Counted from the first letter of the stretch, positions 2,446 to 64,000 are shown. The stretch is 64,000 bases of DNA from Akkermansia muciniphila (GCA_945860285.1 CAMAQB010000004.1:12164-76163), one strand, 5' to 3'. Numbers and translations: made by a program. The notes: a model not told the origin generated them from the letters alone.

Positions 2446-2459
2446 CGTTTCAGCACTTG

Positions 2460-4265: not shown

Positions 4266-5216
4266 ATGAACCGCAAAACTCTTGTCGCCTCGTTGTTTGT
4301 TTTATCCCTGTCCCCGATTGCCGTGGAGGGCAAGGACAGCGTCTGGACCGATCCCGCCAAAGCCACTGCGGAAAGTTCCGATTTTTTGATCCAGGGTGAA
4401 TACACCGGCAAACTCGGCGATGCCAAGGTTGGGGTGCAGTTGGTCGCCGAGGGGGCGGGCAAGTTCGCGGTGGTTTACTACCCGGGTGGATTGCCCGGCG
4501 ACGGTTTCAGTGGCGACAAAGCCACCCGCATCAAAGGCAAGGCGGACGCGGAAAAAGTCACCCTGCCCGACATGAGTGCCACGTTGAAGGACGGCAAGAT
4601 GGTTTTTAAAAACGGCAGCTTGAGCAAAGTGGAGCGCAAGAGCCCGACTCTCGGTGCTGCGGCTCCGAAAGGTGCCGTGGTCCTTTTCGACGGAAAAAAC
4701 GGCGATGCTTTTGACAAAGGAGTGCTGGATGGCGACATGCTTTGTCAGGGAATCAACACCAAGCAGAAGTTCCAGAGCTTCCAGTTGCATGTTGAATTCA
4801 AGATTCCCTTCATGCCCGAGGCCCGCGGACAGGGCCGCGGCAACAGCGGTTGTTATTTGCAAAGCCGCTATGAGTGCCAGATGCTCGACAGTTTCGGGCT
4901 CGAAGGCGAGACCGACGAGTGCGGCGGCTTCTACAAGATCAAGACGCCTGATTTCAACATGGCCTATCCGCCGCTTGCCTGGCAGACTTACGACATCGAT
5001 TTCACCGCCGCCACCTTTGATGCGTCTGGCAAGAAAACAGCGAATGCGACAGCGGTTGTGAAGCACAATGGCGTATTGATCCACAAGGGCATCGAACTTC
5101 CCCATGCGACCACCGCCTCGCCGTTGGGCGAGGGCCCCGAGCCTGGTCCGCTGCACTTGCAGGATCATGGCAATCCGGTGCGCTACCGCAACATCTGGAT
5201 TGTTGAGAAGAAATAA
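4266..5216 (+). CDS. DUF1080 (3-keto-disaccharide hydrolase-like) domain protein, secreted
   Basis: C-terminal HLQDHGNPVRYRNIWIVEK and the preceding beta-rich region are typical of DUF1080. Signal peptide MNRKTLVASLFVLSLSPIAVEG runs from ATG 4266; the track start 4224 is TTG. Confidence 0.7.
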   Translation: MNRKTLVASLFVLSLSPIAVEGKDSVWTDPAKATAESSDFLIQGEYTGKLGDAKVGVQLVAEGAGKFAVVYYPGGLPGDGFSGDKATRIKGKADAEKVTLPDMSATLKDGKMVFKNGSLSKVERKSPTLGAAAPKGAVVLFDGKNGDAFDKGVLDGDMLCQGINTKQKFQSFQLHVEFKIPFMPEARGQGRGNSGCYLQSRYECQMLDSFGLEGETDECGGFYKIKTPDFNMAYPPLAWQTYDIDFTAATFDASGKKTANATAVVKHNGVLIHKGIELPHATTASPLGEGPEPGPLHLQDHGNPVRYRNIWIVEKK

Positions 5217-5221
5217 GCCAC

Positions 5222-6577
5222 TCAGCGCGCGGCCGTTTTCAATTCGGCAAAGCGGGCGCGCATCTCGGTCAGGATCCTCGCCCTCTTCGGATCACCGATG
5301 ATGTCATTTTCCTCCAGGGGATCGTTGACGAGGTCGAAGAGTTGTTCCACGTTGAAATCCGGCCAATAGAGGTATTTCATGTCTTTTCTAACAAGTGCCT
5401 CCGAGGCCGGGATGAAGTCCTTGCTCTGGTGGGTTCCGTGTTCATAGAAGAATTCGCTGCGCCACACGGGTTTTTTCAAGGCAAGGTAGAGCGGCGACAG
5501 ATTCTGACCCTGCATTCGCGGCGGCGCGGCAATGCCCGCGGCCGCGAGAACGGTCGGGGCGATGTCGACATTCAGCGCAAAATCATCGTTGGTGCCGCCC
5601 GCTTTGGTTTTCGGCAGACGTGGGTCGCGGACGATCAGGGGTACGCGGATGCTCTCCTCGTAGGGGTACCATTTGTCGGCCAAGCCATGCTCGCCGTGAA
5701 AGTAACCATTGTCGCCGGTGAAAATCACCATTGTGTTTTCCAACATGTTTTGTTTTTTCAGCTCGTCGAGCACCCGACCGCAAGTCGCATCAACTTCACT
5801 CGCCAGTCGGTAGTAATTCTTCATCATGCTCTGGTATTTCTCCGGGGTGTCGAAACGCCAGTGCCAGCGGTGGCGGCTTTCGTTTTTCTCACTGATCAGA
5901 AAGGGCGGCAGTTTGTGATACGCTTCGTCGGTTGCGGTTTTGGGAATGGGAATGGCGGTATCCTTGTAGAGTTCCATGCTTTGCGGTTGGGGCAGATACT
6001 GCAAGGGGTTGCCGTCCTCCGCGTGGGTGGCGAAAAAGGCCAGGGTCAGGCAGAATGGTTTATCGGTCGGTCTGCTGCCAAGAAACTCCAGGGCGTCGTT
6101 CTGATTCTTCTGTGTGACGTGGATTTTCACCCCGTCCGGCCCGGTCATCCAGTGGGTTCCGCTGTAGGCGCGACCGAAGTCGTAATTCTCTTTCGGAAAC
6201 GCGCCGTTGTGCCACTTGCCGATGTGTCCGACGTAATATCCATGGCGCCTCAGCAATCCCGGATAGGTTTCGGCCCAGGGTGTCTTGAACGGATTCATGG
6301 CGACATTGCCGTGGCGCGACATCCATTGGCCGGTCATCAGCGAGGCGCGGCTGACGCCGCAGATCGAAGTGGTCACGCAGGCGTGGGTGAATCGAGTGCC
6401 TTCCTTGGCGAGTTGATCGAGCCGGGGTGTCTTCACAACCGGGTTGCCCGCGCAGCCCAGGGTGTCGAAGCGCCAGTCATCGGCTTGAAGGATCAGAATG
6501 TTCAGCGGTCGGTCCGCCGGAGCGGCGGAAAGGTGACAGGGGAGGAGAAGCAGCAGATGGAGCAGGAGATGTCTCAT
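5222..6577 (-). CDS. Sulfatase family protein with variant C-G-V-S-R active-site motif
   Basis: [32 protein letters not shown]...[15 protein letters not shown] and [13 protein letters not shown]. Signal peptide from ATG 6577 ([19 protein letters not shown]). Confidence 0.8.
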
Positions 6578-6640
6578 GATGGATTGCGAGGTATTCTCTG
6601 AGTCTAGTTCAATTGGCACGGATGTAAACCACGTGGTTTT

Positions 6641-7300
6641 CTAACGACCGCGTTGCAAGGGATGTCCGGCTTTTGCCTTGGTGACATGGGGTGGTTTGAG
6701 GTAGACCGGCTGCACGGGCCTGCTGGCGTGGAAGGATTTCTCCTCCTCGTCCAGCGCGCGCCAGCATTGCCACAATCGGCCAGCGCTGGGGGTTTCCCGG
6801 GCGATGGTTCTGGCGAAGGTTGCGGGATCGATTTCATCAAGGGAAAACACGCAGGGTTCGGAATGTGCGATCATCGCACGCATTTCCTCCAAACCGCCCA
6901 TCACGGGGTCGCCCGAACTTTTGCCTGCGGTGATCTCCGCCCACCACCAGTCGCCGCGGCGGGCATCGCCAATCGCCAGGCACCGGGATCGTTCCCTCGC
7001 CGGCACGGTGGCAAGAAACGAGGGCAGTCCGATCATCGGGCAGTTGTGTGCGATGGCGAGTCCCTGGGCGACGGCGATGCCCACCCGGGTGCCGCTGTAA
7101 CTGCCGGGTCCGGTGCCGACGATGATGGCACCGATGTCGCCGGGCACAAGTGCCGCTGTGATCTGCTCCAACGGATCGAAAATGTCACAATTGTGGCAGC
7201 GCTCGCTGAAGAAGCTTTCCTCGTGCCACTGCCCGTCGAAAAGTCCAATGCTTCCTTGCGGGGTTGAGGTTTCGATCAATAAAGTGGCAGTACTGCTCAT
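6641..7300 (-). CDS. tsaB: tRNA threonylcarbamoyladenosine (t6A) biosynthesis protein TsaB
   Basis: MSSTATLLIETSTPQGSIGLFDG...IIVGTGPGSYSGTRVGIAVAQGLA is the YeaZ/TsaB signature. Start set at ATG 7300; the 261-aa track ORF carries a non-homologous N-terminal extension. Confidence 0.75.
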   Translation of the reverse strand: MSSTATLLIETSTPQGSIGLFDGQWHEESFFSERCHNCDIFDPLEQITAALVPGDIGAIIVGTGPGSYSGTRVGIAVAQGLAIAHNCPMIGLPSFLATVPARERSRCLAIGDARRGDWWWAEITAGKSSGDPVMGGLEEMRAMIAHSEPCVFSLDEIDPATFARTIARETPSAGRLWQCWRALDEEEKSFHASRPVQPVYLKPPHVTKAKAGHPLQRGR

Positions 7301-7424
7301 CTGGCGGGAATTATGCAGAAATCCGCAAAAATGGCAAACTTCCAGCTTTTTTCCTTTCTGCGTGTTTCTCCCTTGCTTAGTGCAACGGCAAACGCTTTCT
7401 TTTCCACATAATTTTTTTCCAAAC

Positions 7425-8555
7425 ATGAGTATTTACGCAAAAGGTCTGGAAGGCGTGATCGCCAATGAGTCCGCACTTTCGAATGTCGAGGGTGCCGAGG
7501 GTCGCTTGAGTTATCTTGGCTACAGCATCGATGATTTGGTCGAGCATTGCACCTTCGAGGAAGTCACGCATTTGCTTCATCACGGTCATCTGCCGAATCG
7601 GGCGGAATTGGGCGAGTTGGAGAAGGAACTGCGCACGGACCGCGAGCTGCCCCGGGGGGTGATTGATTTTCTGAAGTCCACACCGAAAGACGCCAATCCG
7701 ATGGATGTGGTGCGCACGGCGGTTTCGATGCTCGGCATCTACGACAAACGGGCAAAGACCGGTGATCCGGACCTGGCGCTTGACGCGAAAATCGCCCTGT
7801 CGCTGGTGGCTAAAACGCCGGTAATCGTCGCCGCATTTCACCGCTTTCGCCAGGGGCTGGAACTTCCCCCGATCCGCACCGATCTTGCCGAAGCGGCTCA
7901 TTTCCTTTATCTGATCAATGGCGAAGTTCCTTCGCAAAAAATGGCGAACATCCTCGATGTGGCCTACACCCTGCACGCGGACCACGGCATGAACGCTTCG
8001 ACCTTCTCGGCGCGTGTGACCGTGGCCACCCTGTCGGATTTTTATTCCGCCGTCACTTCCGCCATCGGCACTCTCAAAGGTCCGCTTCACGGCGGGGCCA
8101 ACGAGGGGGTGATTCACATGCTGGAGGAAATCGGCGAGCTTTCGCGGGTGGATGCCTATGTGGAGGGAAAACTGGCGCGCAAGGAAAAAATCATGGGCAT
8201 CGGTCACAGGGTTTACAAGGTGCTCGATCCGCGCGCCCCGCATTTGCGGAAGCTGGCGATCGAACTCACTGCGGAACTCGGTGAGCCGAAGTGGATCCAG
8301 ATGTCCGAGCGCATCGCGGAAATCATGCGCGAAGGCAAGGGGCTGAATGCGAATGTCGATTTCTACTCCGCCACCGTCTATCATTCGCTGAACATACCCA
8401 CCGATTTGTTCACGCCGATTTTCGCCATTGCCCGCATGTCCGGCTGGACCGCCCAGGTTCTTGAACAGCTGCGCGACAACCGCTTGTATCGCCCGTTGAC
8501 ACTCTATACCGGGCCCAAGGAATTGAGCAAGGTGTCGCCGATCAACGAACGTTGA
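7425..8555 (+). CDS. gltA: Citrate synthase (short, ~376 aa type)
   Basis: MSIYAKGLEGVIANESALSNVEGAEGRLSYLGYSIDDL..., HADHGMNASTF, GPLHGGANE, GIGHRVYKV.DPR. The track ORF begins at GTG 7113 inside tsaB, so the start was moved to ATG 7425. Confidence 0.9.
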   Translation: MSIYAKGLEGVIANESALSNVEGAEGRLSYLGYSIDDLVEHCTFEEVTHLLHHGHLPNRAELGELEKELRTDRELPRGVIDFLKSTPKDANPMDVVRTAVSMLGIYDKRAKTGDPDLALDAKIALSLVAKTPVIVAAFHRFRQGLELPPIRTDLAEAAHFLYLINGEVPSQKMANILDVAYTLHADHGMNASTFSARVTVATLSDFYSAVTSAIGTLKGPLHGGANEGVIHMLEEIGELSRVDAYVEGKLARKEKIMGIGHRVYKVLDPRAPHLRKLAIELTAELGEPKWIQMSERIAEIMREGKGLNANVDFYSATVYHSLNIPTDLFTPIFAIARMSGWTAQVLEQLRDNRLYRPLTLYTGPKELSKVSPINER

Positions 8556-9897
8556 TCGGAGTCATAACACCGCATCTCAGCAGGTCTTCCTGCATGCGCG
8601 TGCTCCGCAAGGCCGTTATTTCCGGCGGCAGTATCGCAAGATCTTCCTGTTCGACGACTGCAAGCGCCAGCAGGTCGATTTCGTTTTTTTTCAGGATTCG
8701 CAAGAATTCCGCGCGACTGTCCGACCATCCCGTGAAGACGCAGATGCACGCCGCCAGCTCGGCACTGTGAGCGCTTGCCAGCCGCGCGAGAGACGAAAAA
8801 TCTTCCACCGGGGTGATTGTCACTGCCGCGAGTGCTTCGAGAAGTTTCACTGAATCCGCCAGTCCTTTTCCCGCGGTAATGACTTTGTTGTGGCCCCCCA
8901 ACAAGATCAAGTCGAGCATTGCATCCTCGCCATCGATCGCCGCTACAAAGGAGGCGGCCACGGACACCGCTTCCTCGAATGCCTGATTGCGTCCTGCCGC
9001 AGCGAAGGTATCGAGGATCAGGGCGTAACGGGGAAAACGCATGTCCTCGACCTCTTTGATAATCGGTCTGCCGGTCTTGGCCCATGATTTCCAATGGATC
9101 AGCCGCGGCGGGTCGCCGCTGCGGTATTCGCGCAACGCGGTGAACTCCCCCGTGTTGCCGTTTTGACGCGACGCGGCATCGTCGCCTGCTTGATAATGCG
9201 CCGAACCCGGCAGGTTGAGTGCGGGAAGACGATAGCGCCGCGGCAACACAGCCACATGTGCGGGGGCGGCAGCCACCTTGCGGGCACGCTGGAAAAAGTG
9301 GAGAGGATCGGGCAACAACACGCGCAAGTCATCGAGCTCGATCATTCCTCGTCTGCGCGGTGTCAGCACCATGTTCACACGGCTCCCGCCCGCTGCCGGG
9401 ACGGTGATGACCGCGCTGCCGACACCCTGATCGAACGATTTGTTTCTTTCCACCAGCCACTGCCAGCGGTGATAGGCGAACAACCGGTCAAACGTGTTGC
9501 GCTGAGCCTCCGCAGGTTCCCGTTCGTGCAGGAAACTTTCCCGGTCAGGACGCGGGTCTGCGGGCGATTCCATGAGCTTGCAATCGGGTACATCTCCTCC
9601 CTCATTGATGAGCGTGATATGATAATGAAAAGGCGTTCCAGCCGAGGCATGCGGTGGCACCTGGCGCACGGCGCTCAGCCTCGCTCGTCGCGACCAGGCC
9701 CAGATCAAGGTCAGCGCAGCCAGTCCCACGGGGAGGGCGAAAAATTGATAGAGCGGGCGAATCGGACTGCCCATCAGCATTGTCGCGCTGACCACCGCGG
9801 CGATGATCACCCCCCATCCGGCGGGCAGTATTCTGCGCATCAGGAAATGTTTCAGCGCCTCACTCTGGTGATAGGATCGATAAAGATACCGGAGCAT
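8542..9897 (-). CDS. DUF58 domain-containing protein (vWA-like, MoxR-associated family)
   Basis: EFTALREYRSGDPPRLIHWKSWAKTGRPIIKEVED is the DUF58 hallmark. Two N-terminal hydrophobic helices. The 3' end overlaps the convergent citrate synthase stop by 14 nt. Confidence 0.7.
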   Translation of the reverse strand: MLRYLYRSYHQSEALKHFLMRRILPAGWGVIIAAVVSATMLMGSPIRPLYQFFALPVGLAALTLIWAWSRRARLSAVRQVPPHASAGTPFHYHITLINEGGDVPDCKLMESPADPRPDRESFLHEREPAEAQRNTFDRLFAYHRWQWLVERNKSFDQGVGSAVITVPAAGGSRVNMVLTPRRRGMIELDDLRVLLPDPLHFFQRARKVAAAPAHVAVLPRRYRLPALNLPGSAHYQAGDDAASRQNGNTGEFTALREYRSGDPPRLIHWKSWAKTGRPIIKEVEDMRFPRYALILDTFAAAGRNQAFEEAVSVAASFVAAIDGEDAMLDLILLGGHNKVITAGKGLADSVKLLEALAAVTITPVEDFSSLARLASAHSAELAACICVFTGWSDSRAEFLRILKKNEIDLLALAVVEQEDLAILPPEITALRSTRMQEDLLRCGVMTPINVR

Positions 9898-54932: not shown

Positions 54933-55081
54933 TACGATTTCGCAACGCTATTTCCTGCGCAGGGAAAATCCCCGGATGCCGGCGACGAGGACCGTGATTT
55001 CCGCAGACCGGCGGATTCCAAAAAAAAGAATTGCCAGCAAAGCCCGGATCGTTGTAATTTCACCCCCGCTACGAAATAGCC

Positions 55082-55156
55082 GCGCGGTTAGCTCAGTGGT
55101 AGAGCACCACCTCGACACGGTGGGGGTCGCAGGTTCGAGACCTGCACCGCGCACCA
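55082..55156 (+). tRNA. tRNA-Val (anticodon GAC), CCA encoded
   Basis: Manual cloverleaf: GCGCGGT|TA|GCTC|AGTGGTA|GAGC|A|CCACC|TCGACAC|GGTGG|GGGTC|GCAGG|TTCGAGA|CCTGC|ACCGCGC|A|CCA. All stems pair perfectly. The anticodon loop has C rather than U at position 33. Confidence 0.85.
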
Positions 55157-55293: not shown

Positions 55294-55372
55294 GGGGCAT
55301 AATTTCGGATTTTGGTGGGCATTTTGGTGGGCATTTTTTTGTTGTTTTTATATCATTTGCAGTGGGCATTTT
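55294..55372 (+). repeat. Cluster of direct repeats G(G/T)GGGCAT(T/A)
   Basis: GGGGCATAATTT at 55294. Tandem TTTTGGTGGGCA at 55310-55321 and 55322-55333. GTGGGCATTTT at 55362-55372. All same orientation, 140-215 nt after the tRNA. Confidence 0.7.
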
Positions 55373-55383: not shown

Positions 55384-55401
55384 GACCGTTGCATAACGGT
55401 C
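55384..55401. repeat. Island palindrome, variant copy GACCGTT-GCAT-AACGGTC
   Basis: Half-sites ACCGTT / AACGGT are identical to the three downstream copies. The central 4 nt is GCAT instead of ACGT. Lies 67 nt upstream of the amidase ATG. Confidence 0.8.
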
Positions 55402-55467
55402 GTCACTCAGTCTTCTGCGCGTCCACTATTTTTTATGGTTACTGCCGGTTGACGGCTGGGTAATCGT

Positions 55468-56010
55468 ATGAAGAAACAAATCGCGCTGGTGGTAGGGCAT
55501 GAGCCAGGTGGCGGTGCTGAGGGTGAGCGGGCGTATAATTTAATTGTTCAAAAGAGCCTGAAGGAAATGCTTGAGGCGGAGGGCTTCGATGTGTTCGCGT
55601 ATGTGCATGAGCTTAAATCCTACGGGGCACGGCAAGCGGCAATGGCGGCGGCGGTCAATAAGGCGCAACCGCAAAACTTGATTTGCGTGGAGCTGCATTA
55701 CAATGACGTGGATGCCGAGCCTGCGAATGGGCACCAGTTCCACTACAATGCGTGTAGGGGGCTGGCGGTGGCATTTGCGAGTGAGTGGCAGAAGACATTC
55801 CCCAGCTCGCGTGCGCGGCAGGACAGGGGCACGCTGCACACGCCTACGGGTGATGGTGCAGGGTTTCTAAGAAAGTCTCCAGGGCTGGCTGTGCTGGTGG
55901 AGCCGTTTTTCCACTCGAACAAGATTGAGTGGATGTTTTTTCGTAATAAGCAAAAGGAAGTGGCAGAGGCATACGGACGGGCAATCATTCAATTCACGAA
56001 AAAACTTTGA
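55468..56010 (+). CDS. N-acetylmuramoyl-L-alanine amidase (Amidase_3-like; phage endolysin candidate)
   Basis: ALVVGHEPGGGAEG.E..., ICVELHYND, AVLVEPFFHSN match the Zn-ligand contexts of the MurNAc-LAA family. No signal peptide. Confidence 0.7.
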   Translation: MKKQIALVVGHEPGGGAEGERAYNLIVQKSLKEMLEAEGFDVFAYVHELKSYGARQAAMAAAVNKAQPQNLICVELHYNDVDAEPANGHQFHYNACRGLAVAFASEWQKTFPSSRARQDRGTLHTPTGDGAGFLRKSPGLAVLVEPFFHSNKIEWMFFRNKQKEVAEAYGRAIIQFTKKL

Positions 56011-56225
56011 TGTTTGGGGCGAAAGTAAATTTTGTGGATGGGCTGCGGGGGTGGATGGATCGCTTGCCGATTCGTTTGCGGCGGTCGGAGAAAGAATTGA
56101 GTGTGGCAGCGGGTGAGGTAACTCCGATCGCGGAAACGGAGGGGCAAGAAGCAGTCATCGGGGCGATGGGCTGGGGCGGTGCCAAGTGGAATGGTGAGGT
56201 GGCTAAGGTTTTGAAAGATATATGA
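56010..56225 (+). CDS. Hypothetical phage protein (71 aa)
   Basis: ORF translationally coupled on both sides (TGATG at 56008-56012; ATGA at 56222-56225). No TM segment and no family recognised. Confidence 0.45.
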   Translation: MFGAKVNFVDGLRGWMDRLPIRLRRSEKELSVAAGEVTPIAETEGQEAVIGAMGWGGAKWNGEVAKVLKDI

Positions 56226-56635
56226 GAAACGCATTAGCGGCAGCATGGGCAGATGATTTAGCAGGGCGCGTAGCGATACCGGTCTATGCGCAGCGGCGAG
56301 ACGCGGCGGCGGTGCCACCGTTTGCAGTGGTGCGCGTAGAGGAGCTGGAGCAGGTGGTGGGCGGCGCGGATGTCTGGCACGGGGAAGTGCGAGTGGTGGT
56401 GGTGACAGATATTTACCGCGAGGGCGGGGAGTCTGTAGCAGCGCACCATTCGGCGGTGGCGGATATTTACAGAGCGCTGGAGGAGACGGTGAAGGACAGC
56501 TGCGATATGGACCGAAATGTGCGGTTGTATGGATTCGATTTGCACCGGCACGAGGAAGTGCAGGTAAGCAGCCCACGTGGAGAAAAGGTGTATGCGGATG
56601 TTTTTTTCATCACGGCGGGCGCGGGGCGCGTGTGA
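56222..56635 (+). CDS. Hypothetical phage structural protein (possible tail-completion/terminator-type, by position)
   Basis: 137 aa, immediately upstream of the putative major tail gene. Weak resemblance to DUF3168-type proteins (VYAQRRD...PPFAVVRVEE...). The assignment is positional. Confidence 0.4.
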   Translation: MRNALAAAWADDLAGRVAIPVYAQRRDAAAVPPFAVVRVEELEQVVGGADVWHGEVRVVVVTDIYREGGESVAAHHSAVADIYRALEETVKDSCDMDRNVRLYGFDLHRHEEVQVSSPRGEKVYADVFFITAGAGRV

Positions 56636-56795
56636 TGCCCCTGCCCTCCTAGATCAGAGCGGAGCGTTCACTGTAGCGCGCATGTTTTGCGTTGGCTTAC
56701 GATAGTTACTAGGATTTTCTGGGCTTAGGTACACTTCTACCTAAGGATAGATGCCGCCCCTCTGCCCACCCCTAGGTTGACAGGACAACAAAGGC

Positions 56796-57164
56796 ATGGC
56801 TTTTACAAAACATGGGAACGGCGATTACATTTTTGGTTTTAACGATCCATCGGCGTTGGCGATTGCGGCGGCGGTCGGGGTGAAGCCGCAAACTTTAAGT
56901 CTTAGCTTCACTCCTGAATTCACGGCACAGGCGGAAAACGAGGATGCCGAAGTGGATAGCGTGGTGGTGGGTGCGGATACAGTGGATTTCACTCTGAGCG
57001 GGTATCTGGTGGATCAGGAGCTTTTCGAGGAGGGCGCATCGTTTGAGTTCGCCGGACGTTACTTTATCATCATGAGTCGTAAGTTGGACCTTAACAATAA
57101 GGACTACTGCAAAGCCGAGCTGGCTGGTAAGTCTCATTTGAATGTTACTGGTTTGGCTGATTGA
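56796..57164 (+). CDS. Putative major tail protein (positional assignment)
   Basis: 122-aa acidic, beta-rich ORF occupying the slot two genes upstream of the tape measure gene. Followed by a strong terminator. Confidence 0.4.
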   Translation: MAFTKHGNGDYIFGFNDPSALAIAAAVGVKPQTLSLSFTPEFTAQAENEDAEVDSVVVGADTVDFTLSGYLVDQELFEEGASFEFAGRYFIIMSRKLDLNNKDYCKAELAGKSHLNVTGLAD

Positions 57165-57183
57165 TTTTTTGTTGTAGTGTGGG

Positions 57184-57220
57184 AACGGCGAGAGGGAAAC
57201 TTCTCGCCGTTTTTTCTTTT
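57184..57220 (+). terminator. Rho-independent terminator
   Basis: AACGGCGAGA-gggaaact-TCTCGCCGTT (10-bp stem) followed by TTTTTCTTTT. Lies 20 nt after the stop of the putative major tail gene. Confidence 0.75.
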
Positions 57221-57229
57221 GACGCGTTG

Positions 57230-57245
57230 ACCGTTACGTAACGGT
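57230..57245. repeat. Island palindrome ACCGTTACGTAACGGT (perfect 16 bp)
   Basis: Perfect inverted repeat that ends immediately before ATG 57246. Overlaps the GTTGAC box at 57226-57231. Confidence 0.9.
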
Positions 57246-57914
57246 ATGACGAATAAAGAGCGGTTTTATGAGGCGTTTGCGCACACGGAGCATGTAGTGT
57301 TCGGTCGAAAGCTGAAACGATTCACACTGCGGCACAGGTTTTGGCTGGAGACGCTGGAATGCGGTGCGGTGGTGGGCGGCACAGTGGACTGGCCAGCGGT
57401 GGAGCTGGGGGTGCGAATTTGCTCTATGCCATACGAGGGGCTGGACGATGCGGTGAAGAAGCTGCTCAGGCGTGGGCCGAGATGGTGGGAGGCATGGCGT
57501 TTTTTATGGCGGGCCATGCGCGGCGACTTGGCAAAAGAATACGGCGCTCTGCTGGAATACATGGGCGATCACGGCTGCGCGCCGGAGCGGAATGGTGATG
57601 GCGGTGGGGCGGGCATGACTTACGAGGCTATGCCCGGTCTGCTGAGTCTGGTGTGTGGGGTGGTGCGTGCTAGTGGCGGGTGGTCGCCGGATACGGTATG
57701 GTCATTGAGTCCAGGAGAAGCAGAGTGGTATTGCACGGCGTGTTACATGCACCGAGGGGTGGACATGGGGATTAAGACCGAGCATGATGAGAGATTTGAA
57801 GCGGGGCTGGCGGAGCATGGCGAGGCGATCCGCGCAGTGATCGCGGAGGCAAAGCGGAAGCGCAAAGAAGCGGCGGCAGCAAAGGCGGCCGAGGCTGCGG
57901 AGGCGGCAGATTGA
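57246..57914 (+). CDS. Hypothetical phage protein in tail-assembly-chaperone position
   Basis: 222-aa ORF directly upstream of the tape measure gene, with a C-terminal Ala/Lys/Glu-rich tail. Function is inferred only from gene order. No slippery frameshift site was noticed. Confidence 0.4.
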   Translation: MTNKERFYEAFAHTEHVVFGRKLKRFTLRHRFWLETLECGAVVGGTVDWPAVELGVRICSMPYEGLDDAVKKLLRRGPRWWEAWRFLWRAMRGDLAKEYGALLEYMGDHGCAPERNGDGGGAGMTYEAMPGLLSLVCGVVRASGGWSPDTVWSLSPGEAEWYCTACYMHRGVDMGIKTEHDERFEAGLAEHGEAIRAVIAEAKRKRKEAAAAKAAEAAEAAD

Positions 57915-57921
57915 GGGGTTG

Positions 57922-57937
57922 ACCGTTACGTAACGGT
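57922..57937. repeat. Island palindrome ACCGTTACGTAACGGT (perfect 16 bp)
   Basis: Identical to the copy at 57230. Ends immediately before ATG 57938 and overlaps the GTTGAC box at 57918-57923. Confidence 0.9.
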
Positions 57938-60900
57938 ATGGCGAATCAACAAACGACGACGACCGCTAATGTGGTGGTGCAAAGCTCCGGCATCGGTAAA
58001 TTAAAAAGCCAGTGGGCGGATTTCACGGGATCGTTATTGGAGCCGATCGCAATTTTAGCGTCGGGTGGATCTAAGGTGCAAGCGTTGTGGGCTGGGGTGC
58101 GCTCTATATTTATGGCAAAAGTTCTCGGGCCGCTGGAGCTGGGGGTGGGAGCATCGCTGGCGTTCTTGGTGATGACGAAGCGATTGGTGAGCGCGTGGAA
58201 GGAGCTGGGTATGTCCTCGGCGGCGACGCTGGAGCGGATGACGCTACAGTTCCGGCCATTGCTCGGTAGCATGGAGCGAGCGCGTGATCGGGTGAAGGAG
58301 CTGATGGAGTTCACGGAGCGGACACCCTTCCGATTGGAGGAAACGGCGGAGGCGAATAAAATTTTAGAAGCGCTGACAAAGGGCGCATTGTCAGGGCGCG
58401 AGGGCATGTTGTTAGTCGGTGATGCGGCGGCGGTGGCGGGGGTGGGACTATCCGAGGCGGCACGTTATACGGGACGGCTGTATGACGGGCTGATGAGTGG
58501 CCGGCCAGTGGGTGAAGCTGCCATGCGATTGCAGGAGATGGGTATCATCACGGGGCAAACGCGGAATCAGATTGAGAGCTTGCAGGCGACGAATACGAGC
58601 GGGTTGGCGATTTGGCGAATGGTGCAGGCAGAGATGGCGAAAAATAAGGGCGCGATGGATGATATGAGCGTATCGCTGGAGGGCCTACAATCGACGTTTG
58701 AGGACACGAAGATGAGTCTGCAAGCGGGCTTCAGCGAAAATTTCATGGAGGGGGAAAAGGCGGGTATCAAGAGCAGCATTGCGCTGATGAAGCTGATTCA
58801 GCCAGTGGCGGAAGAAATGGGGAAAGCCTTTGGCGAATTGAGTAATTGGTGGGCGAATTTGAAAAACAAGGCGGTGGAAAGTGCGACGACTATCCAGGGG
58901 CTGGGCACGACGATCACGTGGTTGGTGAAGGGTCTGCTCGGATTTGCTGGTGCGTTAGCTTTAACGGGCGGGGTGGCAATGGCGGGATTTATCGCCAAGA
59001 TTTTATTAGTGGCGGCGGGAAATAAGGCTGCGGCGCAATCGCAGGTAATGCTGAATGCGGTGCAAGGCAGTAGCGTGGGAGTAATGGCAAAGCTGACCTC
59101 GATGAAGAATAGTGCGCTGGCGGCGATCCGTGCGAATGCGGCGGGGCTGAGAGCGGAAGCTGCTGCGCACATGCAGGCAGCGGGAGCAGCGGGGCGAAAC
59201 ATCGTGGCGACGAATGGGGTGACGGCGGCGACGCGGGTGGCATCTCTATCGTTTAAGGGCATGGGCATGGCGCTGCGGTTTGTGGGGGCGCAGTTCAAGT
59301 TGCTGGCAGTTTCGATGCTGACGAATCCCCTGTTTTTGGTTATAGCAGCATTGGTCGCGGTGGGAATAACGCTCAAGCATTTTAGCGATCAAACGGCGGC
59401 GGCGAAAAAGCAGCAGGATGATTATGCGAAAAGCACGGACGCGCTGATGAGTAAGATGACGCGCGAATCGAGGGAGATCCGCACGAAGATCGATCTGCGC
59501 CGTCAGGAGGCCGCGGCGATCGGAGAACTCGGGAAAGCGTATGCGGCACTGGAGGGGGCTGATGATGCCAAGATGAAGTCGCTAGCAAATGAGCGGATTG
59601 ATAAATTACGAAAACAGCTGGAAGGAATTCGCGGAAAAAGCGGCATAGTTGAAAAATCAGAAAACCAATATGGCCGCGATGCGGAAAACCGGGCGGATAG
59701 CGTGGCAGCAGATCGATCGGGTGAAGATATATTTTCAGAGAGAGGGCCGGAGCAAGCGTTGGCGATTGCAGAAAAAAGGCTGGCGGTGATCGAGGAGAGA
59801 AGGCGTGCGGCGATTGAATTAGAACAACTGGAAGCGGCCGCCGAGAAGCGGGCGGATGCGGCGGTGGTGGCCGGTCAGGAGAACTTGCTTCGTGAGCAGC
59901 AGATCATGCGGGAGATGGCGGTGCTGAATGAGGGGTTGGCAAATCATGGCAAAGGATGGGAAACGGCGGGTGAAACTCAGGACCGCCATAAAAAGCAGCG
60001 CGCGAAAAAAGCAGAGTTAGAAGCCGAGCTTGTAGGAATCCGCATGAATCAACAAGGCGGGGGCGCGGAGTTGTCTGCACAGCTCAATAGTGGCAGTGAG
60101 CAAATGGCGCTGAATGCAAAAATCGCGGCGTATGACCAAATGATGGAAGCGGCGAAAGAGGTGGAGGATGCGAATGTCGCTGTCGCTAATGCGGAAAAAG
60201 ATGGTCTGGCCGCTGCGAAAGAGAGCCTGGATATAGCACTTCAACGGGCGGCGGTGGCGAATGGCGTAGCTGGCCAGGCGGGAGTGATAGGCTGGGGCGC
60301 GGGCAATCGCAAAGAAGGTGTGGATAAAGTGAGTGAACTGGAAACCCGGCGGAGCGAGGATATCTCCACCGATCGCAAAATCAAGGCGGCGGCGGAAACA
60401 AAAAAATTAGCGTATGATGTGATGCGCGCACGACTGGATGGTGAGGCGGCGGTGGACAGTATTCGCTTAAGGGGTGATGAGCGCGAAGCGAAATTATTAG
60501 AGATCGAAAGGGAAAAGCTGGAGCTGAAAAAACAAAGTAACCTGATCGGTGCGCAAGCGTATGATCGGGAGAGCGAGAGTCTCAATGCTAAGGCCGAGGC
60601 TCTGAAGAAAGAGTCGAAGGAAAAGCGCGAGATCATGGTGCAGGGAATGGTGCTCGGTAAATTGCAGCGGGCGATGGCAGAGGCGCAGTTGAAGGGTGAC
60701 GCGAAGGGCGCGAAAAATCTGCGTGATGAAATAGCGCGGCGTGAAAAGGCGGCGGAGCAAGCTGCGGCGGAGCGGGACTCAAAGGAGATCGGCGGCAAGG
60801 GAAATCAGGAAGAATATGTAAAGCTGCGGATGGCTGCATTTACGGAGCAGCAAAAAATGGAAGAAGACGCACGGAAGCGTAATGAAAAGGAAAGCCAGAG

Positions 60901-61303
60901 AGCGACGCGTGCTGATGTTCAATCCGGTGTGGTGGGAGTGCAGGCGCGGGTGCTGAAGATGCAAGGCAATCATGATGGCGCGAAAGCGATGCTAAAGGAA
61001 GATCAGGCAAAGCAGGACGAGCTGGCACGGGCTGCGCGCGCAAAGGCTCTTCGCGCCGATGGATTTAGCAAGGGAGAAGCCTCGGCCTTGGCGAGAGATG
61101 AAATGAAGTCAAAGCAGGGGGAGCGGATTCTTAACAAGCTATTCGATCAAAAGGGAACCGTGGTGGCGGGGAGCATGGCACAGATCGGCGGCGGTGGCGG
61201 GGTGTATGGAAATGACCCACAAGCGAGAGCGCTAGAAAAAGCGACGCGGGTGCTGGAGCAGATCCGCGATAATACGGTGAAGACGGTGGAGGATGCTTGG
61301 TGA
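57938..61303 (+). CDS. Phage tail tape measure protein
   Basis: 1121 aa. Hydrophobic segments near residues ~320-480 (GLGTTITWLVKGLLGFAGALALTGGVAMAGFIAKILLVAAG; LTNPLFLVIAALVAVGITL) and very long Ala/Glu/Lys/Arg-rich helical regions. Canonical position in a siphovirus tail module. Confidence 0.8.
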   Translation: MANQQTTTTANVVVQSSGIGKLKSQWADFTGSLLEPIAILASGGSKVQALWAGVRSIFMAKVLGPLELGVGASLAFLVMTKRLVSAWKELGMSSAATLERMTLQFRPLLGSMERARDRVKELMEFTERTPFRLEETAEANKILEALTKGALSGREGMLLVGDAAAVAGVGLSEAARYTGRLYDGLMSGRPVGEAAMRLQEMGIITGQTRNQIESLQATNTSGLAIWRMVQAEMAKNKGAMDDMSVSLEGLQSTFEDTKMSLQAGFSENFMEGEKAGIKSSIALMKLIQPVAEEMGKAFGELSNWWANLKNKAVESATTIQGLGTTITWLVKGLLGFAGALALTGGVAMAGFIAKILLVAAGNKAAAQSQVMLNAVQGSSVGVMAKLTSMKNSALAAIRANAAGLRAEAAAHMQAAGAAGRNIVATNGVTAATRVASLSFKGMGMALRFVGAQFKLLAVSMLTNPLFLVIAALVAVGITLKHFSDQTAAAKKQQDDYAKSTDALMSKMTRESREIRTKIDLRRQEAAAIGELGKAYAALEGADDAKMKSLANERIDKLRKQLEGIRGKSGIVEKSENQYGRDAENRADSVAADRSGEDIFSERGPEQALAIAEKRLAVIEERRRAAIELEQLEAAAEKRADAAVVAGQENLLREQQIMREMAVLNEGLANHGKGWETAGETQDRHKKQRAKKAELEAELVGIRMNQQGGGAELSAQLNSGSEQMALNAKIAAYDQMMEAAKEVEDANVAVANAEKDGLAAAKESLDIALQRAAVANGVAGQAGVIGWGAGNRKEGVDKVSELETRRSEDISTDRKIKAAAETKKLAYDVMRARLDGEAAVDSIRLRGDEREAKLLEIEREKLELKKQSNLIGAQAYDRESESLNAKAEALKKESKEKREIMVQGMVLGKLQRAMAEAQLKGDAKGAKNLRDEIARREKAAEQAAAERDSKEIGGKGNQEEYVKLRMAAFTEQQKMEEDARKRNEKESQRATRADVQSGVVGVQARVLKMQGNHDGAKAMLKEDQAKQDELARAARAKALRADGFSKGEASALARDEMKSKQGERILNKLFDQKGTVVAGSMAQIGGGGGVYGNDPQARALEKATRVLEQIRDNTVKTVEDAW

Positions 61304-61477
61304 GCAGACGCTGTGTCTCGTCTTGGTCGGCGCGAAGGCCGGATTCGCTGCCTAACGATGAGCGCATGCACCACTACCAGCAGCGGCGGGCATCGATCAC
61401 GGGGTTATTATTGTAATTACGGAAAATCATCGAAACAGGGCGACTGGTAGTGGTTGTCATGACGCGGCTTGTTGGGC

Positions 61478-62311
61478 TTATTTATTCTGCTGGAAGATGG
61501 AGTGGAAATCCTTCAGTAACTCAGCCTTAAGGACAATACCCAGATTGTTGGGAATTCCTGCGATACTCACAGCCTTCTGGTGGACGGGAATTGTCACCAC
61601 TCGGACATCACCCTCAACTGTGTGTTGCGGCCCAGCGTAAAGAACGCCTAGCAACTTGATACGCGATCCCATGACAATTTCATTGCGTCTTAAATATGAC
61701 CCTGCATCAAAGACGAGAACTGGCGATCCACTCGATCCCGGAAAACAAGCAGCATCAATCAAAAACTCCTTCTTGCCGTTCCAGTCTTTGTCGTAGGCGG
61801 AGGCCAAAACACCACGGCGAAAGATTGGTAAGTTGTTCGTGCTATCCCACAGGCCATTCGGATAGCCCACCATGGTAATCGACTCAATCCCCACAAAATC
61901 CTCAACATCTGCTGGAGTCGGCAGGAGTGAATCATCAAACCCAATGTAGAAAAACTTCACGCCTCGGCTCTCAGCATGATGGAGAAGTGGGGCGATCGGC
62001 ATGATCGCTAAGTCAATATTGGGGTCAGGATGTCTGATCCACCTCGAATCAAACGAGTCAAATTCGAACGTCTCATGCCTTCCATAATCCGGCATGCCTT
62101 CTGAATCCTGAAGCGTCATCAAAAATCGCCCCTTGGAAGCGCCATCGATAACATGTCGATTTGTGACTATGGCCGGCACATGTTGACCTCCATCGATTGC
62201 GAAGCTGTAAAAGAATCCAGAACCCGTGCCACGTCCTCCGTCGGGATAGTCAGTCTCAATCCGCACTGTGCTGTGGGAGAGTTCTTCAATAGGCGTAAGT
62301 TTGCGTTTCAT
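61478..62311 (-). CDS. Trypsin-like (S1/chymotrypsin-fold) serine protease, cytoplasmic; moron-like insert
   Basis: Triad contexts IVTNRHVIDG (His), NIDLAIMPI (Asp), CFPGSSGSPVLVF (Ser). No signal peptide. Opposite strand to all other island genes and visibly lower GC. The track start 62356 is TTG; the ATG is at 62311 (MKRKLTPIEE...). Confidence 0.75.
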   Translation of the reverse strand: MKRKLTPIEELSHSTVRIETDYPDGGRGTGSGFFYSFAIDGGQHVPAIVTNRHVIDGASKGRFLMTLQDSEGMPDYGRHETFEFDSFDSRWIRHPDPNIDLAIMPIAPLLHHAESRGVKFFYIGFDDSLLPTPADVEDFVGIESITMVGYPNGLWDSTNNLPIFRRGVLASAYDKDWNGKKEFLIDAACFPGSSGSPVLVFDAGSYLRRNEIVMGSRIKLLGVLYAGPQHTVEGDVRVVTIPVHQKAVSIAGIPNNLGIVLKAELLKDFHSIFQQNK

Positions 62312-62474
62312 ATATTTTACCCAACAGTATAATTCGTTCAGAAGAAGATTAATCAAATTTAACGATTTAAAAAAGAATTCTTATGATAATTTTGCAAACC
62401 CTTTATTCATAAGGGGAAAACTTCTGTAGTCACAGATGTTTGAATACTTAGACAACAGAACAATCGTGGCTAAG

Positions 62475-62495
62475 CATCTGTGATTTCCACAGATG
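62475..62495. promoter_or_regulatory. Operator-like inverted repeat CATCTGTG-N5-CACAGATG
   Basis: Perfect 8-bp arms in the divergent region between the protease gene and the gene starting at 62566. A third half-site CACAGATG is at 62431-62438. Confidence 0.4.
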
Positions 62496-62565
62496 CCGCA
62501 ATGAACCGCCTCGCCTCACCCGCCTCGCCTCAGTGGTCTGCCGCAGTTGACTGGGAGCGTAGAGC

Positions 62566-63285
62566 ATGTTGGCTCATGGGAGTAATGGTCTAGTGCTGGA
62601 GCATAGCGGCAAGCTGAAAAGTGACCGTTATGGATTGTGGACGGGACGCTTGCGTTTTAGTATGCCGGCGACTCGCCCAGAATTGCTGCCTGCGGTGGGA
62701 AGTGTGCACCCTGGGGTGAGTTGGATGCATTGCGAGGATCGTGATATCACGCTGACTCCTGGGCGGTGGCTGGTGGATTGCAGCTATGTGGGCACGGATG
62801 CGATCGATACGACGGCGGTGTATGAGCTGCAGCGGAATACGAATACGGAGCCGATCGAGACTCATGAAAAATTCGTAACGCATATTGCAGGGAAGCCGAG
62901 CGCCCCGCTGAACGGAGCATTGTTTGTGGATGAAGATGGCACCCCGACGGCGGATGATAAGCGAGGATTGTTTCACCGTTTCATCGCGGTAAAGCCTGAT
63001 GGAAGTCGGAATCGATTTGCGGGAATGACGGGGTTTTTATCGCCAAGCAGCACGCAGTGGGTGAAGTCGTGGACGAGCCGAACGAAGCCGACCGATGGGG
63101 GTGGTGTAGGGAAAATCGATACGCCGGAGGGAGGGGCTACGAGCTTCGCGGGCTGCGACTGGCTTTATGTGGGAATGCAATTTTCTGAGCGAGTGGGCGT
63201 CTATAGCATACGGAAGTCGTGGATGCTGAGTGGCCGCGGCGGCTGGATTCCAGAAGTCTATGAGCCTGACGGAGCCACTTCTTAG
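62566..63285 (+). CDS. Hypothetical phage tail protein (distal-tail position)
   Basis: 239-aa ORF, the first same-strand gene after the tape measure gene. A GTTGAC box 19 nt upstream supports ATG 62566. No family recognised. Confidence 0.5.
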   Translation: MLAHGSNGLVLEHSGKLKSDRYGLWTGRLRFSMPATRPELLPAVGSVHPGVSWMHCEDRDITLTPGRWLVDCSYVGTDAIDTTAVYELQRNTNTEPIETHEKFVTHIAGKPSAPLNGALFVDEDGTPTADDKRGLFHRFIAVKPDGSRNRFAGMTGFLSPSSTQWVKSWTSRTKPTDGGGVGKIDTPEGGATSFAGCDWLYVGMQFSERVGVYSIRKSWMLSGRGGWIPEVYEPDGATS

Positions 63286-63291
63286 CGGTTG

Positions 63292-63307
63292 ACCGTTACG
63301 TAATGGT
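63292..63307. repeat. Island palindrome, one-mismatch copy ACCGTTACGTAATGGT
   Basis: 15 of 16 positions identical to the copies at 57230 and 57922. Ends 1 nt before ATG 63309. GTTGAC box at 63288-63293. Confidence 0.85.
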
Positions 63308-63308
63308 G

Positions 63309-64000
63309 ATGAGTGATTTTTTATCCAAGTTAACTCCGGTGAAACGAGGGATGAGCCCGGCGCAGCTGGCGAGTCCGGAGCGCATCGAGGCGCTGCAACA
63401 GGCAATCGTGGCACTGTGGGAGGGGCGGAACCTGACGACTCGAGGCGTGCCTGTGAGCAGCGGTGCTAGTAGTCGCCATGGGCGGCGGTTCGTGCCGCTG
63501 TTCGCGCATGGGAAGTTACGGATCGGCCTGGGGACGGTGGCCTTAAAGCAATCACTAACGCCACTGATTGAGCCGCATTACCCGCTATTCAACGAGGTGA
63601 AGATTGATGCGGATGAGGCCCCAGCGATGGATTTGGCGGATATGGCAGCAGGCGATTATCAGATTGTTTTGCTTTGCAGTAGTAATAGCCGGATTGTAGT
63701 GCAGCTAGTCAGCGAGGAGATTGTAAAAGAGGAGGATGAGCAAGCCGTGCAACTGGCGACGTTCACAATGGGAGCGGGCGCGGTGGGTGTGGTGGAGGAT
63801 GTGCAGCACTTATGGCGGAGTGATGTATTTATTTCCAGGGGGGCGTGCCCATTTGGTGATGTGTTCGTGTTGTTGGAAGGTGAGATCGCGACTACTTATC
63901 TCTCGGGGGGAGTGTTGACGGGTGGCGAAACCAATGATGTGATCGCCGATATTGAGATAGACCTAGGAAGTCCAAATGGCACTTGGCTTTGGATGTTGGT
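63309..64000 (+). CDS. Hypothetical phage protein, N-terminal 230 aa (continues beyond window)
   Basis: Own translation MSDFLSKLTPVKRGMSPAQLASPERIEALQQAIVALWEGRNL... is open to the window end, so it is absent from the track. An in-frame ATG at 63303 is an alternative start. Confidence 0.6.
   Translation, partial: MSDFLSKLTPVKRGMSPAQLASPERIEALQQAIVALWEGRNLTTRGVPVSSGASSRHGRRFVPLFAHGKLRIGLGTVALKQSLTPLIEPHYPLFNEVKIDADEAPAMDLADMAAGDYQIVLLCSSNSRIVVQLVSEEIVKEEDEQAVQLATFTMGAGAVGVVEDVQHLWRSDVFISRGACPFGDVFVLLEGEIATTYLSGGVLTGGETNDVIADIEIDLGSPNGTWLWML

Follow-up and report, generated by a model that had tools for sequence, protein, structure and literature searches.

A 16-bp palindrome recurs at four positions in the 8.8-kb island, part of a Verrucomicrobial prophage, of a 64,000-nt Akkermansia muciniphila sequence (hereafter the window), and related elements carry versions of it that differ from clade to clade while keeping their symmetry. 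On the basis of this sequence pattern, we interpret the palindromes with moderate confidence as putative DNA sites of an element-encoded and probably dimeric regulator. Three of the window copies lie inside a GTTGAC-containing box that marks late-gene starts.

Palindromes and gene starts in the island

The motif ACCGTT-N4-AACGGT has four matches in the 8.8-kb island against 0.06 expected, a number that none of 100 shuffled sequences reached. Perfect copies (ACCGTTACGTAACGGT) lie at 57230–57245 and 57922–57937, a copy with one mismatch (ACCGTTACGTAATGGT, C13 to T) at 63292–63307 and a centre variant (ACCGTTGCATAACGGT) at 55385–55400, the last extending to an 18-nt palindrome (GACCGTTGCATAACGGTC; GACCGTT-GCAT-AACGGTC) at 55384–55401; our analysis thus confirmed the four copies listed in an initial annotation of this sequence. 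That annotation had also considered a repeat dispersed through the genome. Over the window's 55 kb of host sequence, ACCGTT-N4-AACGGT has no copy and does not behave as a host-wide REP or MITE element; in a related Akkermansiaceae MAG, exact 19-mer matches (TTGACC plus the palindrome) are confined to five contigs that are 94–98 % identical to the phage contigs, while 19-mer matches in unrelated genomes are singles.

The left border of the island is a tRNA-Val(GAC) gene (55082–55156, plus strand; ARAGORN; Rfam tRNA, 65.7 bits), to the right of which the GC skew climbs from near 0 to values of +0.2 to +0.33. The centre variant (55384–55401, strandless) falls in the gap separating this tRNA from the first island gene and does not adjoin a start codon: the amidase gene (55468–56010; Amidase_3 and endolysin phrog_435 matches) has its ATG 67 nt further on and its own GTTGAC box 47 nt downstream of the copy. 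The relative L006 lacks a counterpart of this palindrome.

The three remaining copies fill the 14–15 nt between a GTTGAC box, whose AC they share, and the start codon, as first described. The box at 57226 (57226–57248 including the ATG, plus strand) overlaps the copy at 57230–57245 and leads to the ATG of a 222-aa gene (57246–57914); that at 57918 (57918–57940 including the ATG, plus strand) overlaps the copy at 57922–57937 and leads to the ATG of the tape-measure gene (57938–61303), both ATGs following the palindrome by 0 nt. The box at 63288 (63288–63311 including the ATG, plus strand) overlaps the one-mismatch copy, which is separated by a single base from the ATG (63309) of the last gene, itself extending past the window end; an in-frame GTG (63306) overlaps the palindrome. 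The orthologous junctions of L006 also carry the site, with an identical palindrome before the 222-aa gene (5495) despite ~70 % overall DNA identity, a TAA inside the palindrome ending the upstream ORF at the tape-measure junction (6184) and a perfect copy followed directly by GTG at the counterpart of the 63288 junction (10307).

Altogether, the box occurs at six window genes. At the amidase start (55448–55470, plus strand), the box and ATG are separated by 14 nt (GGCTGGGTAATCGT), with 10/16 positions matching the palindrome, and at the 122-aa gene in the tail-tube position (56796–57164), the box and 14 nt without palindrome (56776–56798, plus strand) are found in L006 as box-N14-ATG (5037) as well. 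A further box (62546–62568 including the ATG, plus strand; 14-nt spacer TGGGAGCGTAGAGC) precedes a 239-aa gene (62566–63285) at a junction where L006 (9576) has a perfect palindrome. The trypsin-like peptidase gene at 61478–62356 (minus strand; PF13365 and phrog_7688) is an insertion that L006 lacks, with a break in collinearity at island positions 6303/7571.

The copies had been described as heading the lysis, chaperone/tape-measure and distal-tail units; instead, they mark individual gene junctions, and only the copy at 57230 comes after a terminator, a strong intrinsic one with a 15-bp stem and a T run directly 5′ of it (57181–57214, plus strand). The ‘chaperone’ and ‘distal tail’ products returned no family or fold match, and these labels denote position only. 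The window copies are not intrinsic terminators themselves: the terminator scan did not list them, no U tract follows their stems and the real terminator is the separate one at 57181–57214. A related core does lie inside a true terminator stem in L062.

Family-wide, the late-gene box reads GTTGAC(A)-N14-ATG with GGY at -3 to -1 and is found on structural genes only. The spacing is exactly 14 nt 33 times in nine loci, a peak that is absent on the opposite strand and in the host, and the box contains no Shine-Dalgarno core at a functional distance. Upstream stop codons usually lie 2–12 nt 5′ of the box, late intergenic gaps are only about 22–35 nt, and synonymous differences between the window and L006 place the start of translation at the adjacent ATG. 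The AC and GGT ends of the palindrome match the box sequence, and the palindrome touches start codons because it is fitted into this short gene-start signal of fixed length. Start-codon contact, previously taken as a property of the palindrome, is mainly geometric, a consequence of packing: at equivalent junctions of other clades, the copies precede the box by 0–60 nt, fall within genes or separate convergent genes. The GTTGAC box itself is new and, in a host order devoid of Shine-Dalgarno sequences, may be more novel than the palindrome.

Site sequence and symmetry among related elements

Related elements carry from 4 to 12 or more copies each (8–12 in the related contigs), about one per 1–2 kb, and all copies of one element share a single sequence. 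The palindromes of the five clades are ACCGTT-ACGT-AACGGT, CCCTT-ACGT-AAGGG, CCCTT-GCGC-AAGGG, CCTT-ACGCGT-AAGG and ATCCTTAC-C-GTAAGGAT, the changes from one to another being symmetric. Within the clade of the window, the arms are identical in about 30 copies with two single-base exceptions, and the palindrome is perfectly conserved between elements only about 70 % identical. Sites are kept at orthologous junctions despite their changed sequence, namely at the start of a ~105-aa ‘AFWE’ gene, at the start of the 222-aa gene and at the junction preceding the tape-measure gene. A site that co-evolves with a specificity factor would show just this pattern, with one sequence per element that differs between clades.

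Among 16 distinct variants, columns 7/10 co-vary (AT in seven, GC in six, GT in two, non-complementary in one), and columns 8/9 are CG in 14. Across all eight column pairs, 93.8 % of cells are complementary; the whole site, centre included, is dyad-symmetric, and the consensus centres ACGT, GCGC and ACGCGT are each self-complementary. As these central positions are unable to pair in a hairpin, their symmetry is not explicable by a hairpin loop. Changes at arm position 4/13, where both sides differ between clades, are compatible with a site read as DNA or as RNA. Half-site spacing varies between clades by 0, +1 or +2 bp, and one element has N6 centres together with one N4 centre, variation that is easier for a hairpin to accommodate than for a rigid dimer.

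In relatives, outside the window, which covers only part of the element, tandem pairs 24–37 bp apart lie upstream of early genes, including, in three clades, pairs between a 58-aa gene and a DnaN-like phage beta-clamp gene; a further tandem pair, a 20–24 bp perfect palindrome, precedes a 356-aa gene. No convincing sigma-70 promoter overlaps these tandem pairs. Copies also occur within a tape-measure gene and a methyltransferase gene, where, as between convergent genes or 0–60 nt upstream of the box, a signal for translation would be meaningless. About half of late-gene junctions carry sites; these precede low-copy structural genes, and the major capsid and tail-tube genes are without copies.

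DNA-level, RNA-level and cis-acting explanations

The initial suggestion of an operator for a dimeric regulator has gained from the concerted symmetric change between clades, the dyad in the centre, the early tandem pairs and the restriction of exact MAG matches to phage-homologous contigs; it is weakened by the search for the regulator itself, which was not found in the relatives. The window genes were searched and none was recognised as a regulator, in agreement with the first inspection. Searches of Pfam, PHROGs and PDB sequences with candidate early proteins of the relatives yielded no DNA-binding regulator, and the relatives examined showed neither a ParB-like domain nor another known regulator domain. 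A single candidate has a nucleic-acid-binding fold, a 52-aa SymE/AbrB-like protein (precomputed Pfam hit) in one clade.

Because these searches found no regulator, an RNA-level role is retained as a possible but rather unlikely explanation. On the late polycistronic mRNA, the palindrome would then fold into a 6-bp stem whose 4-nt hairpin ends at the start codon, and would serve to control translation as an operator or to couple it. An RNA-binding protein of the element might bind this stem, in the way of MS2 coat protein or T4 RegA, or the stem might mask the initiation region until a ribosome finishing the upstream gene melts it and permits translation. Only 0–1 nt separate the palindrome's end from the start codon in three copies of the window and in some ten copies per related element, and upstream stops generally fall just before the box; the TAA within the L006 palindrome makes for an arrangement suited to translational coupling. 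The presence of copies at low-copy structural genes and their absence from the major capsid and tail-tube genes count against the operator reading, as translational down-tuning would also fit. The centre length (4, 6 or 1 nt) varies as a loop might, two variants changed in a single arm would still allow G-U pairing on the sense strand, and a host order without Shine-Dalgarno initiation (PMC10798248) makes unusual initiation signals plausible.

Against this, the unpairable centre positions co-vary and remain self-complementary, and departures within an element are uncompensated: there are no compensatory changes among the copies of an element, and of the outer-arm departures three are wobble-compatible and five break pairing. 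The gating of translation by RNA that was originally proposed is weakened and now seems rather unlikely. The hairpin said to touch the start codon is predicted to be weak (-6.3 kcal/mol), does not appear in the minimum-energy structure for two of three contexts and has no Rfam match; at 55384–55401, an 8-bp stem does form within a predicted structure (z = -3.5). Moreover, many copies lie within genes, well away from any start codon or as tandem pairs ahead of early genes, and a device depending on structure only would not need an identical sequence at every site.

An improbable alternative is a cis-acting junction cassette without a dedicated trans factor, a repeat spread between gene boundaries by recombination or gene conversion and functioning either as a module-exchange hotspot or as a generic mRNA-stabilising intercistronic stem, like REP elements or T4 PeSL cassettes. 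The identical 20–23 nt unit (GTTGACCGTTACGTAACGGTATG) at many junctions would suit it, as would the related core in the L062 terminator stem and junction 62546, where the 14-nt spacer was replaced wholesale beside the inserted gene with its flanks kept. However, the conserved unit is the palindrome alone, which also occurs without its TTG and ATG flanks, in tandem and inside genes; its perfect conservation between such diverged elements, and the concerted change of all sites of a clade with dyad symmetry kept, likewise argue against a cassette. No transposase or RAYT-type gene accompanies the palindrome, and the stems of the window copies lack a U tract.

The layout of the mer promoter resembles TTGACC followed directly by a 6-4-6 dyad. 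A MerR-type or spacer-operator promoter, with TTGAC as the sigma-70 -35 element, the dyad in a 17–19 bp spacer and the -10 element in the first codons, is nevertheless largely refuted and most improbable: a few copies have AAT-rich hexamers (AATAAA, AATAAT) at the right distance, but 42 aligned box-bearing gene starts show no -10-like signal at 17–19 bp or at the 19–20 bp of a MerR-type spacer, a sigma-70 scan finds no promoter at the window sites, and transcription would start within the coding sequence and leave out the ATG, at which the synonymous differences between the window and L006 place the translation start.

Relation to known dispersed sites and a proposed mechanism

The putative DNA sites share features with several known systems. 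The operators bound by CI/Cro in the lambdoid phages lambda, 434 and P22 are 14–18 bp dyad sites in tandem before early operons, and their sequence and length vary among phages in step with the repressor. The sites described here have the same dyad symmetry over the whole site, including the centre; unlike lambdoid operators, which are confined to the immunity region, they are element-wide and include about half of late-gene junctions. KorB OB sites of RK2, the phiC31 conserved inverted repeats, P1 C1 operators and N15 SopB sites are dispersed operators, present in many copies at promoters, far from them and inside genes, and served by one element-encoded protein. In contrast to KorB/SopB-type systems, searches of the relatives examined detected no domain of ParB-like or other known regulator type. 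At the RNA level, the MS2 coat protein–replicase operator and the T4 RegA sites consist of a small stem or defined sequence at the start codon, RegA acting at many genes; these operators are not known to have dyad symmetry in the loop, tandem sites upstream of promoters or copies within genes.

By analogy, there is a reasonable chance that the putative sites resemble the stoperators of cluster A phages or the repeats of cluster K phages. Cluster A phages (L5, Bxb1, TipsytheTRex) carry more than 20 genome-wide copies of a short site in promoter regions and short intergenic gaps, to which the repressor binds, silencing the prophage (PMC9283540); motif and repressor co-evolve between subclusters (PMC9283540; see also PMC6550527). 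The palindrome too is one short site in many copies across the element, most of them in narrow gaps between genes, with none in the 55 kb of host DNA. Stoperators, however, are asymmetric 13-mers bound by a two-domain monomer and working in one orientation only, which follows the direction of transcription, whereas the sites here are perfect palindromes of 14–18 bp, and because of this symmetry a stoperator-like orientation is undefined. The cluster A phages infect hosts of an unrelated phylum, and their stoperators have no sequence similarity to these sites.

In cluster K phages, the asymmetric SAS motif is fixed a few bases before the start codons of many genes, and about half of the SAS carry an inverted repeat (ESAS) with a subcluster-specific consensus, the host being without both (PMC3203893). 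The GTTGAC box parallels SAS, as a conserved motif of constant orientation close to the starts of many genes, and the palindrome parallels ESAS. SAS (GGGATAGGAGCCC) has a Shine-Dalgarno core and is found at non-structural genes only, whereas the box has no such core and is found at structural genes only; ESAS are imperfect 17-mers with 4–13 bp spacers upstream of SAS, whereas the palindrome described here is compact and perfect and is placed within the box or immediately upstream of it. As with ESAS, the inverted repeats are clade-specific (five), with outer-arm departures that mostly break pairing; ESAS were judged to be DNA-binding sites since departures do not preserve RNA pairing (PMC3203893).

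From the pattern of the sites, we infer protein binding, a DNA rather than an RNA target, and repression. The element would encode its own sequence-specific protein, probably a homodimer, that binds the palindromes, and these would constitute a dispersed regulon with a site every 1–2 kb or so throughout the element. Early-region sites, seen in relatives only, are tandem pairs just 5′ of operons, including the operon that begins with the beta-clamp gene, and would act there as classical operators. Protein bound at single junction sites of the packed late operon would keep genes silent, as a roadblock to moving RNA polymerase in the manner of stoperators or, if the GTTGAC box is a late promoter element, by covering the start site. 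The factor may be the prophage's immunity-type repressor. The 16-nt palindrome, beginning with AC and ending with GGT, fits the box exactly and in one register.

A more tentative and unlikely proposal is that the box and the palindrome work jointly as a system, specific to the phage, that starts and gates translation, or transcription with a very short leader, at late genes in a host order without Shine-Dalgarno initiation. If so, late genes would be turned on when a factor made by the phage recognises the box; which of them are restrained would depend on the palindrome, acting as an RNA stem or, when bound, as a site that exactly fills the box.

Palindrome copies in the window and the island that carries them

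A pattern search of the 64-kb window placed perfect copies of the palindrome ACCGTTACGTAACGGT at 57230 and 57922, a one-mismatch copy at 63292 and a copy with a variant centre (GCAT) at 55385, confirming the four copies reported in the initial annotation. Beyond these, no match with three or fewer mismatches was detected in the 64 kb (chance expectation 0.06), and a search with a relaxed centre added a single two-mismatch site at 62975, which lies within the island. In three copies, the GTTGAC box overlaps the first two bases of the palindrome and the start codon follows 0, 0 and 1 nt downstream. The 55385 copy is an 18-nt palindrome located between tRNA-Val(GAC) and the first island gene and touches no start codon. 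The suggestion that the palindrome marks the heads of gene units and gates start codons is only partly right: the 55385 copy lies off any start codon, and relatives have further copies between convergent genes and within a tape-measure and a methyltransferase gene.

The tRNA-Val(GAC) gene (55082–55156) lies to the left of the island; on its right, the GC skew rises abruptly to values of +0.2 to +0.33. Its promoter is of the normal sigma-70 type (TTGCCA, 17 nt, GTAATT, near 55031–55059). The island encodes, on the plus strand, an amidase/endolysin (55468–56010), small ORFs followed by a 122-aa gene and a 222-aa gene (57246–57914), a 1121-aa gene (tape measure by composition) and a 239-aa gene followed by a gene that runs off the window; the nearest genomic matches lie in an Akkermansiaceae MAG. 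The 222-aa gene is flanked by two of the palindrome copies, and its product has 42 homologues and 22 invariant residues; AlphaFold confidently predicts an all-alpha structure for it (pLDDT 86). Since this protein returned no match in Pfam, PHROG or PDB folds, its ‘chaperone’ label is positional only.

A trypsin-like peptidase gene (minus strand, 61478–62356 in region 61304–62565; low GC; PF13365, phrog_7688) has been inserted after the tape-measure gene, ahead of the next tail gene, and is missing from the closest relative. At the junction after this gene, the relative's palindrome is replaced by an unrelated 14-nt spacer with GGGAG, with CAGTTGAC and the ATG retained. The interval from tRNA-Val to the 55385 palindrome contains two tandem occurrences of TTTTGGTGGGCA and a third GTGGGCATTTT (55310–55333, 55362–55372). 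These repeats may bind an integrase (arm-type sites) or another protein; they have no counterpart in the relative, and alignment of the tRNA-to-amidase region with the relative revealed no homology.

The late-gene start box

All six island genes that are preceded by an intergenic gap display GTTGAC, 14 nt (15 in one case) and then ATG (55448–55470, 56776–56798, 57226–57248, 57918–57940, 62546–62568 and 63288–63311), a layout that no GTTGAC site in the window's host DNA shares. The box is also present in related loci L024, L025, L033, L034, L035, L042 and L043. Across nine related loci, TGAC stands exactly 14 nt ahead of the ATG of a real ORF 33 times, compared with a background of ~3 per distance, and no such distance peak was observed on the opposite strand or in the host. 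Alignment of 42 box starts returned the consensus G-T-TGAC-A, ~10 variable G-rich bases, G-G-Y and ATG, with no upstream conservation and no −10-like signal at sigma-70 spacing. The adjacent ATG is the true start, because synonymous differences between the window and the related locus L006 begin within the first codons past it.

The box is limited to structural genes; A/T-rich leaders resembling those of host genes precede the major capsid gene and relatives' early genes. Three boxes directly follow intrinsic terminators. In the window, a strong terminator (57181–57214; 15-bp stem and T run) lies directly 3′ of the 122-aa gene, which is in the tail-tube position, and 12 nt ahead of the next GTTGAC; in two relatives, too, a box comes immediately after a terminator. 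The box may act in translation, as a start signal, or in transcription, as a late promoter element whose leader would be very short. No Shine-Dalgarno sequences were found at host gene starts (window 1–55000), and the Verrucomicrobiales are reported to lack them globally (PMC10798248).

Several other identities for the motif were rejected. TTGAC is very unlikely to be a sigma-70 −35 element, as no −10 was found at 17–19 bp in the 42 aligned sites or by promoter scan and the differences from L006 mark the ATG as coding. A sigma-54 −24/−12 layout upstream of TTGAC was inconsistent between sites, and a phage RNA polymerase promoter was discounted given that the 1121-aa protein is by composition a tape measure and that no polymerase-sized gene was found in the loci examined. 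The TGA of TTGAC is unused as a stop for the upstream gene in the window, and a mini-ORF within the motif (TTG-ACC-GTT-ACG-TAA) is confined to two window sites and is not general.

The palindrome starts with AC and ends with GGT, the bases that the box requires at its ends (TGAC ... GGY-ATG). As the spacer measures 14 nt and late-gene gaps are 22–35 nt, a 16-nt site has only one register available, in which it shares two bases with TGAC and runs up to the start codon. In clades whose core measures 14 nt, the arrangement is TGAC-A-core-T-ATG (16 nt from TGAC to ATG), and where the gap is roomier, the palindrome sits upstream of the box. Contact with the start codon is therefore best explained by packing, given the matching ends and the one-register fit, and it could also have a functional consequence.

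Palindromes in related elements and the nature of the site

Exact and protein-guided searches recovered ~20 related elements. IMGVR_UViG_3300042863_002375 is collinear with the island (~70 % DNA identity), carries the identical 16-mer at orthologous junctions and, in the place of the window's TGGGAGCGTAGAGC (62552), has a further palindrome copy. Elements of the window clade possess 8 to 12 copies each, ~10 ahead of late genes in the register GTTG-palindrome-(G)ATG. More distant elements (40–55 % protein identity) display the same architecture with different palindromes, namely CCCTT-ACGT-AAGGG, CCCTT-GCGC-AAGGG, CCTT-ACGCGT-AAGG and ATCCTTAC-C-GTAAGGAT; in two marine relatives, the box is present and the palindrome entirely absent. 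Orthologous junctions retain a site whose sequence and exact place vary: inside the box spacer in the window clade, extending from upstream onto the T of TTGAC in L025, and 4, 12, ~27 or ~60 nt upstream of the box in other elements.

A further clade, seen in locus L062, has five copies of CATCCTTAC-C-GTAAGGATG, with an odd centre, in 5 kb (304, 1449, 2688, 3262 and 4882), one of them embedded in a 14-bp-stem terminator after a 58-aa gene. In the related element L008, the cargo at 1033–8867 encodes an MmeI-like restriction-modification enzyme (920 aa), a DEAD-box helicase, a T5orf172 protein and a 492-aa NPPF methyltransferase with a perfect palindrome copy within its coding sequence.

The initial annotation offered two readings, a DNA operator of a dimeric regulator and an RNA hairpin gating translation. 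The operator idea is the better of the two and is strengthened by the comparative data, although the palindrome is still a putative site; we rate the chance that it is a duplex-DNA site for a symmetric protein at about even. All copies of an element share one palindrome sequence and change together between clades, which argues against a structure-only element. In a comparison of 16 distinct variants over the eight column pairs of the 16-mer, 93.8 % of cells were complementary, with columns 7/10 switching between A-T and G-C and columns 8/9 being CG in 14/16 variants. Because the centre columns 7–10 could not pair in a hairpin, this pattern favours duplex DNA recognition by a symmetric protein. 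Each of the three consensus centres (ACGT, GCGC and ACGCGT) is self-complementary, and outer-arm departures within an element are mostly non-pairing, again favouring DNA recognition.

An RNA-level role is the less likely reading. It is favoured by half-site spacing that varies by 0, 1 or 2 bp between clades (one element has N6 centres and one N4), by the occurrence of copies ahead of low-copy structural genes and their avoidance of capsid and tube genes, and by the upstream gene of L006 ending at the TAA within the palindrome. The stem alone reaches −6.3 kcal/mol, the predicted fold differs from it in two of the three window contexts, and an Rfam scan matched the tRNA alone and nothing for the palindrome.

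Candidate regulators and parallels with known systems

Pfam and PHROGs identified no regulator among the nine window proteins and ~35 proteins of relatives, bearing out the earlier remark that no regulator gene is visible in the window. The early region of the related locus L003 has a pair of perfect copies (37 bp spacing) ahead of a 356-aa gene, forming 20–24 bp palindromes, TTTCACCGTTACGTAACGGTGAAA, and a second pair (31 bp spacing) that separates a 58-aa gene from a DnaN-like clamp gene. Two other clades share the 58-aa/clamp gene order and have tandem pairs of their respective palindromes there (26 and 24 bp spacing); their early regions carry further single copies at ~1 per kb. L003 also contains a 67-bp tandem repeat (2626–2819; 2.9 copies, 94 % match) in the interval that separates the start of the late operon from the early genes, adjoined by the centre-variant palindrome ACCGTTGCGCAACGGT at 2595; this repeat may be a replication origin or iterons.

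The 58-aa family (L003 5193–5369; L044 2336–2512; L057-L135) has no Pfam family and comprises 1575 homologues with 20 invariant positions, present in many unrelated phages and sometimes just 5′ of a beta-clamp gene. It was rejected as the specificity factor, being too widespread and too conserved and occurring in most phages without such a palindrome beside it. The Ala/Lys-rich 356-aa protein has no known domain and has sites ahead of its own gene in two clades, an arrangement that would fit autoregulation. PDB sequence searches of both proteins found no regulator, and no homologues were recovered for the N-terminal domain of the 356-aa protein. Among the candidates in the element, a nucleic-acid-binding fold was seen only in a 52-aa SymE/AbrB-fold protein (L003 8592–8750; also L053 13492–13650). 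Its gene is flanked by MoxR-like AAA and VWA (DUF2201) genes within the early operon downstream of the second L003 pair, and this pair is the putative control site of that operon. A 111-aa and a 268-aa protein of the E2-type element are further candidates for the regulator.

Among known systems, the nearest parallels come from mycobacteriophages, namely the cluster A stoperators and the cluster K SAS/ESAS motifs (PMC9283540, PMC3203893). Cluster A stoperators are asymmetric and orientation-dependent, whereas the palindrome is symmetric; cluster K SAS motifs have a Shine-Dalgarno core and accompany non-structural genes, whereas the box lacks such a core and accompanies structural genes. On account of these differences, we do not place the palindrome set in either system and liken its probable mode of action to that of a dispersed phage operator regulon.

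To our knowledge, almost nothing is known of gene regulation in phages of the Verrucomicrobiales, the order with Akkermansia relatives. The GTTGAC late-gene box, a compact fixed-distance signal in a host without Shine-Dalgarno initiation, provides a handle on start-codon or late-promoter choice by these organisms and their phages and deserves its own follow-up. If the regulon reading is true, these phages would carry genome-wide palindromic sites co-evolving with a putative regulator, a stoperator-like form of silencing that evolved independently around a symmetric site, and the clade-specific variants would define immunity groups predictable from sequence alone.
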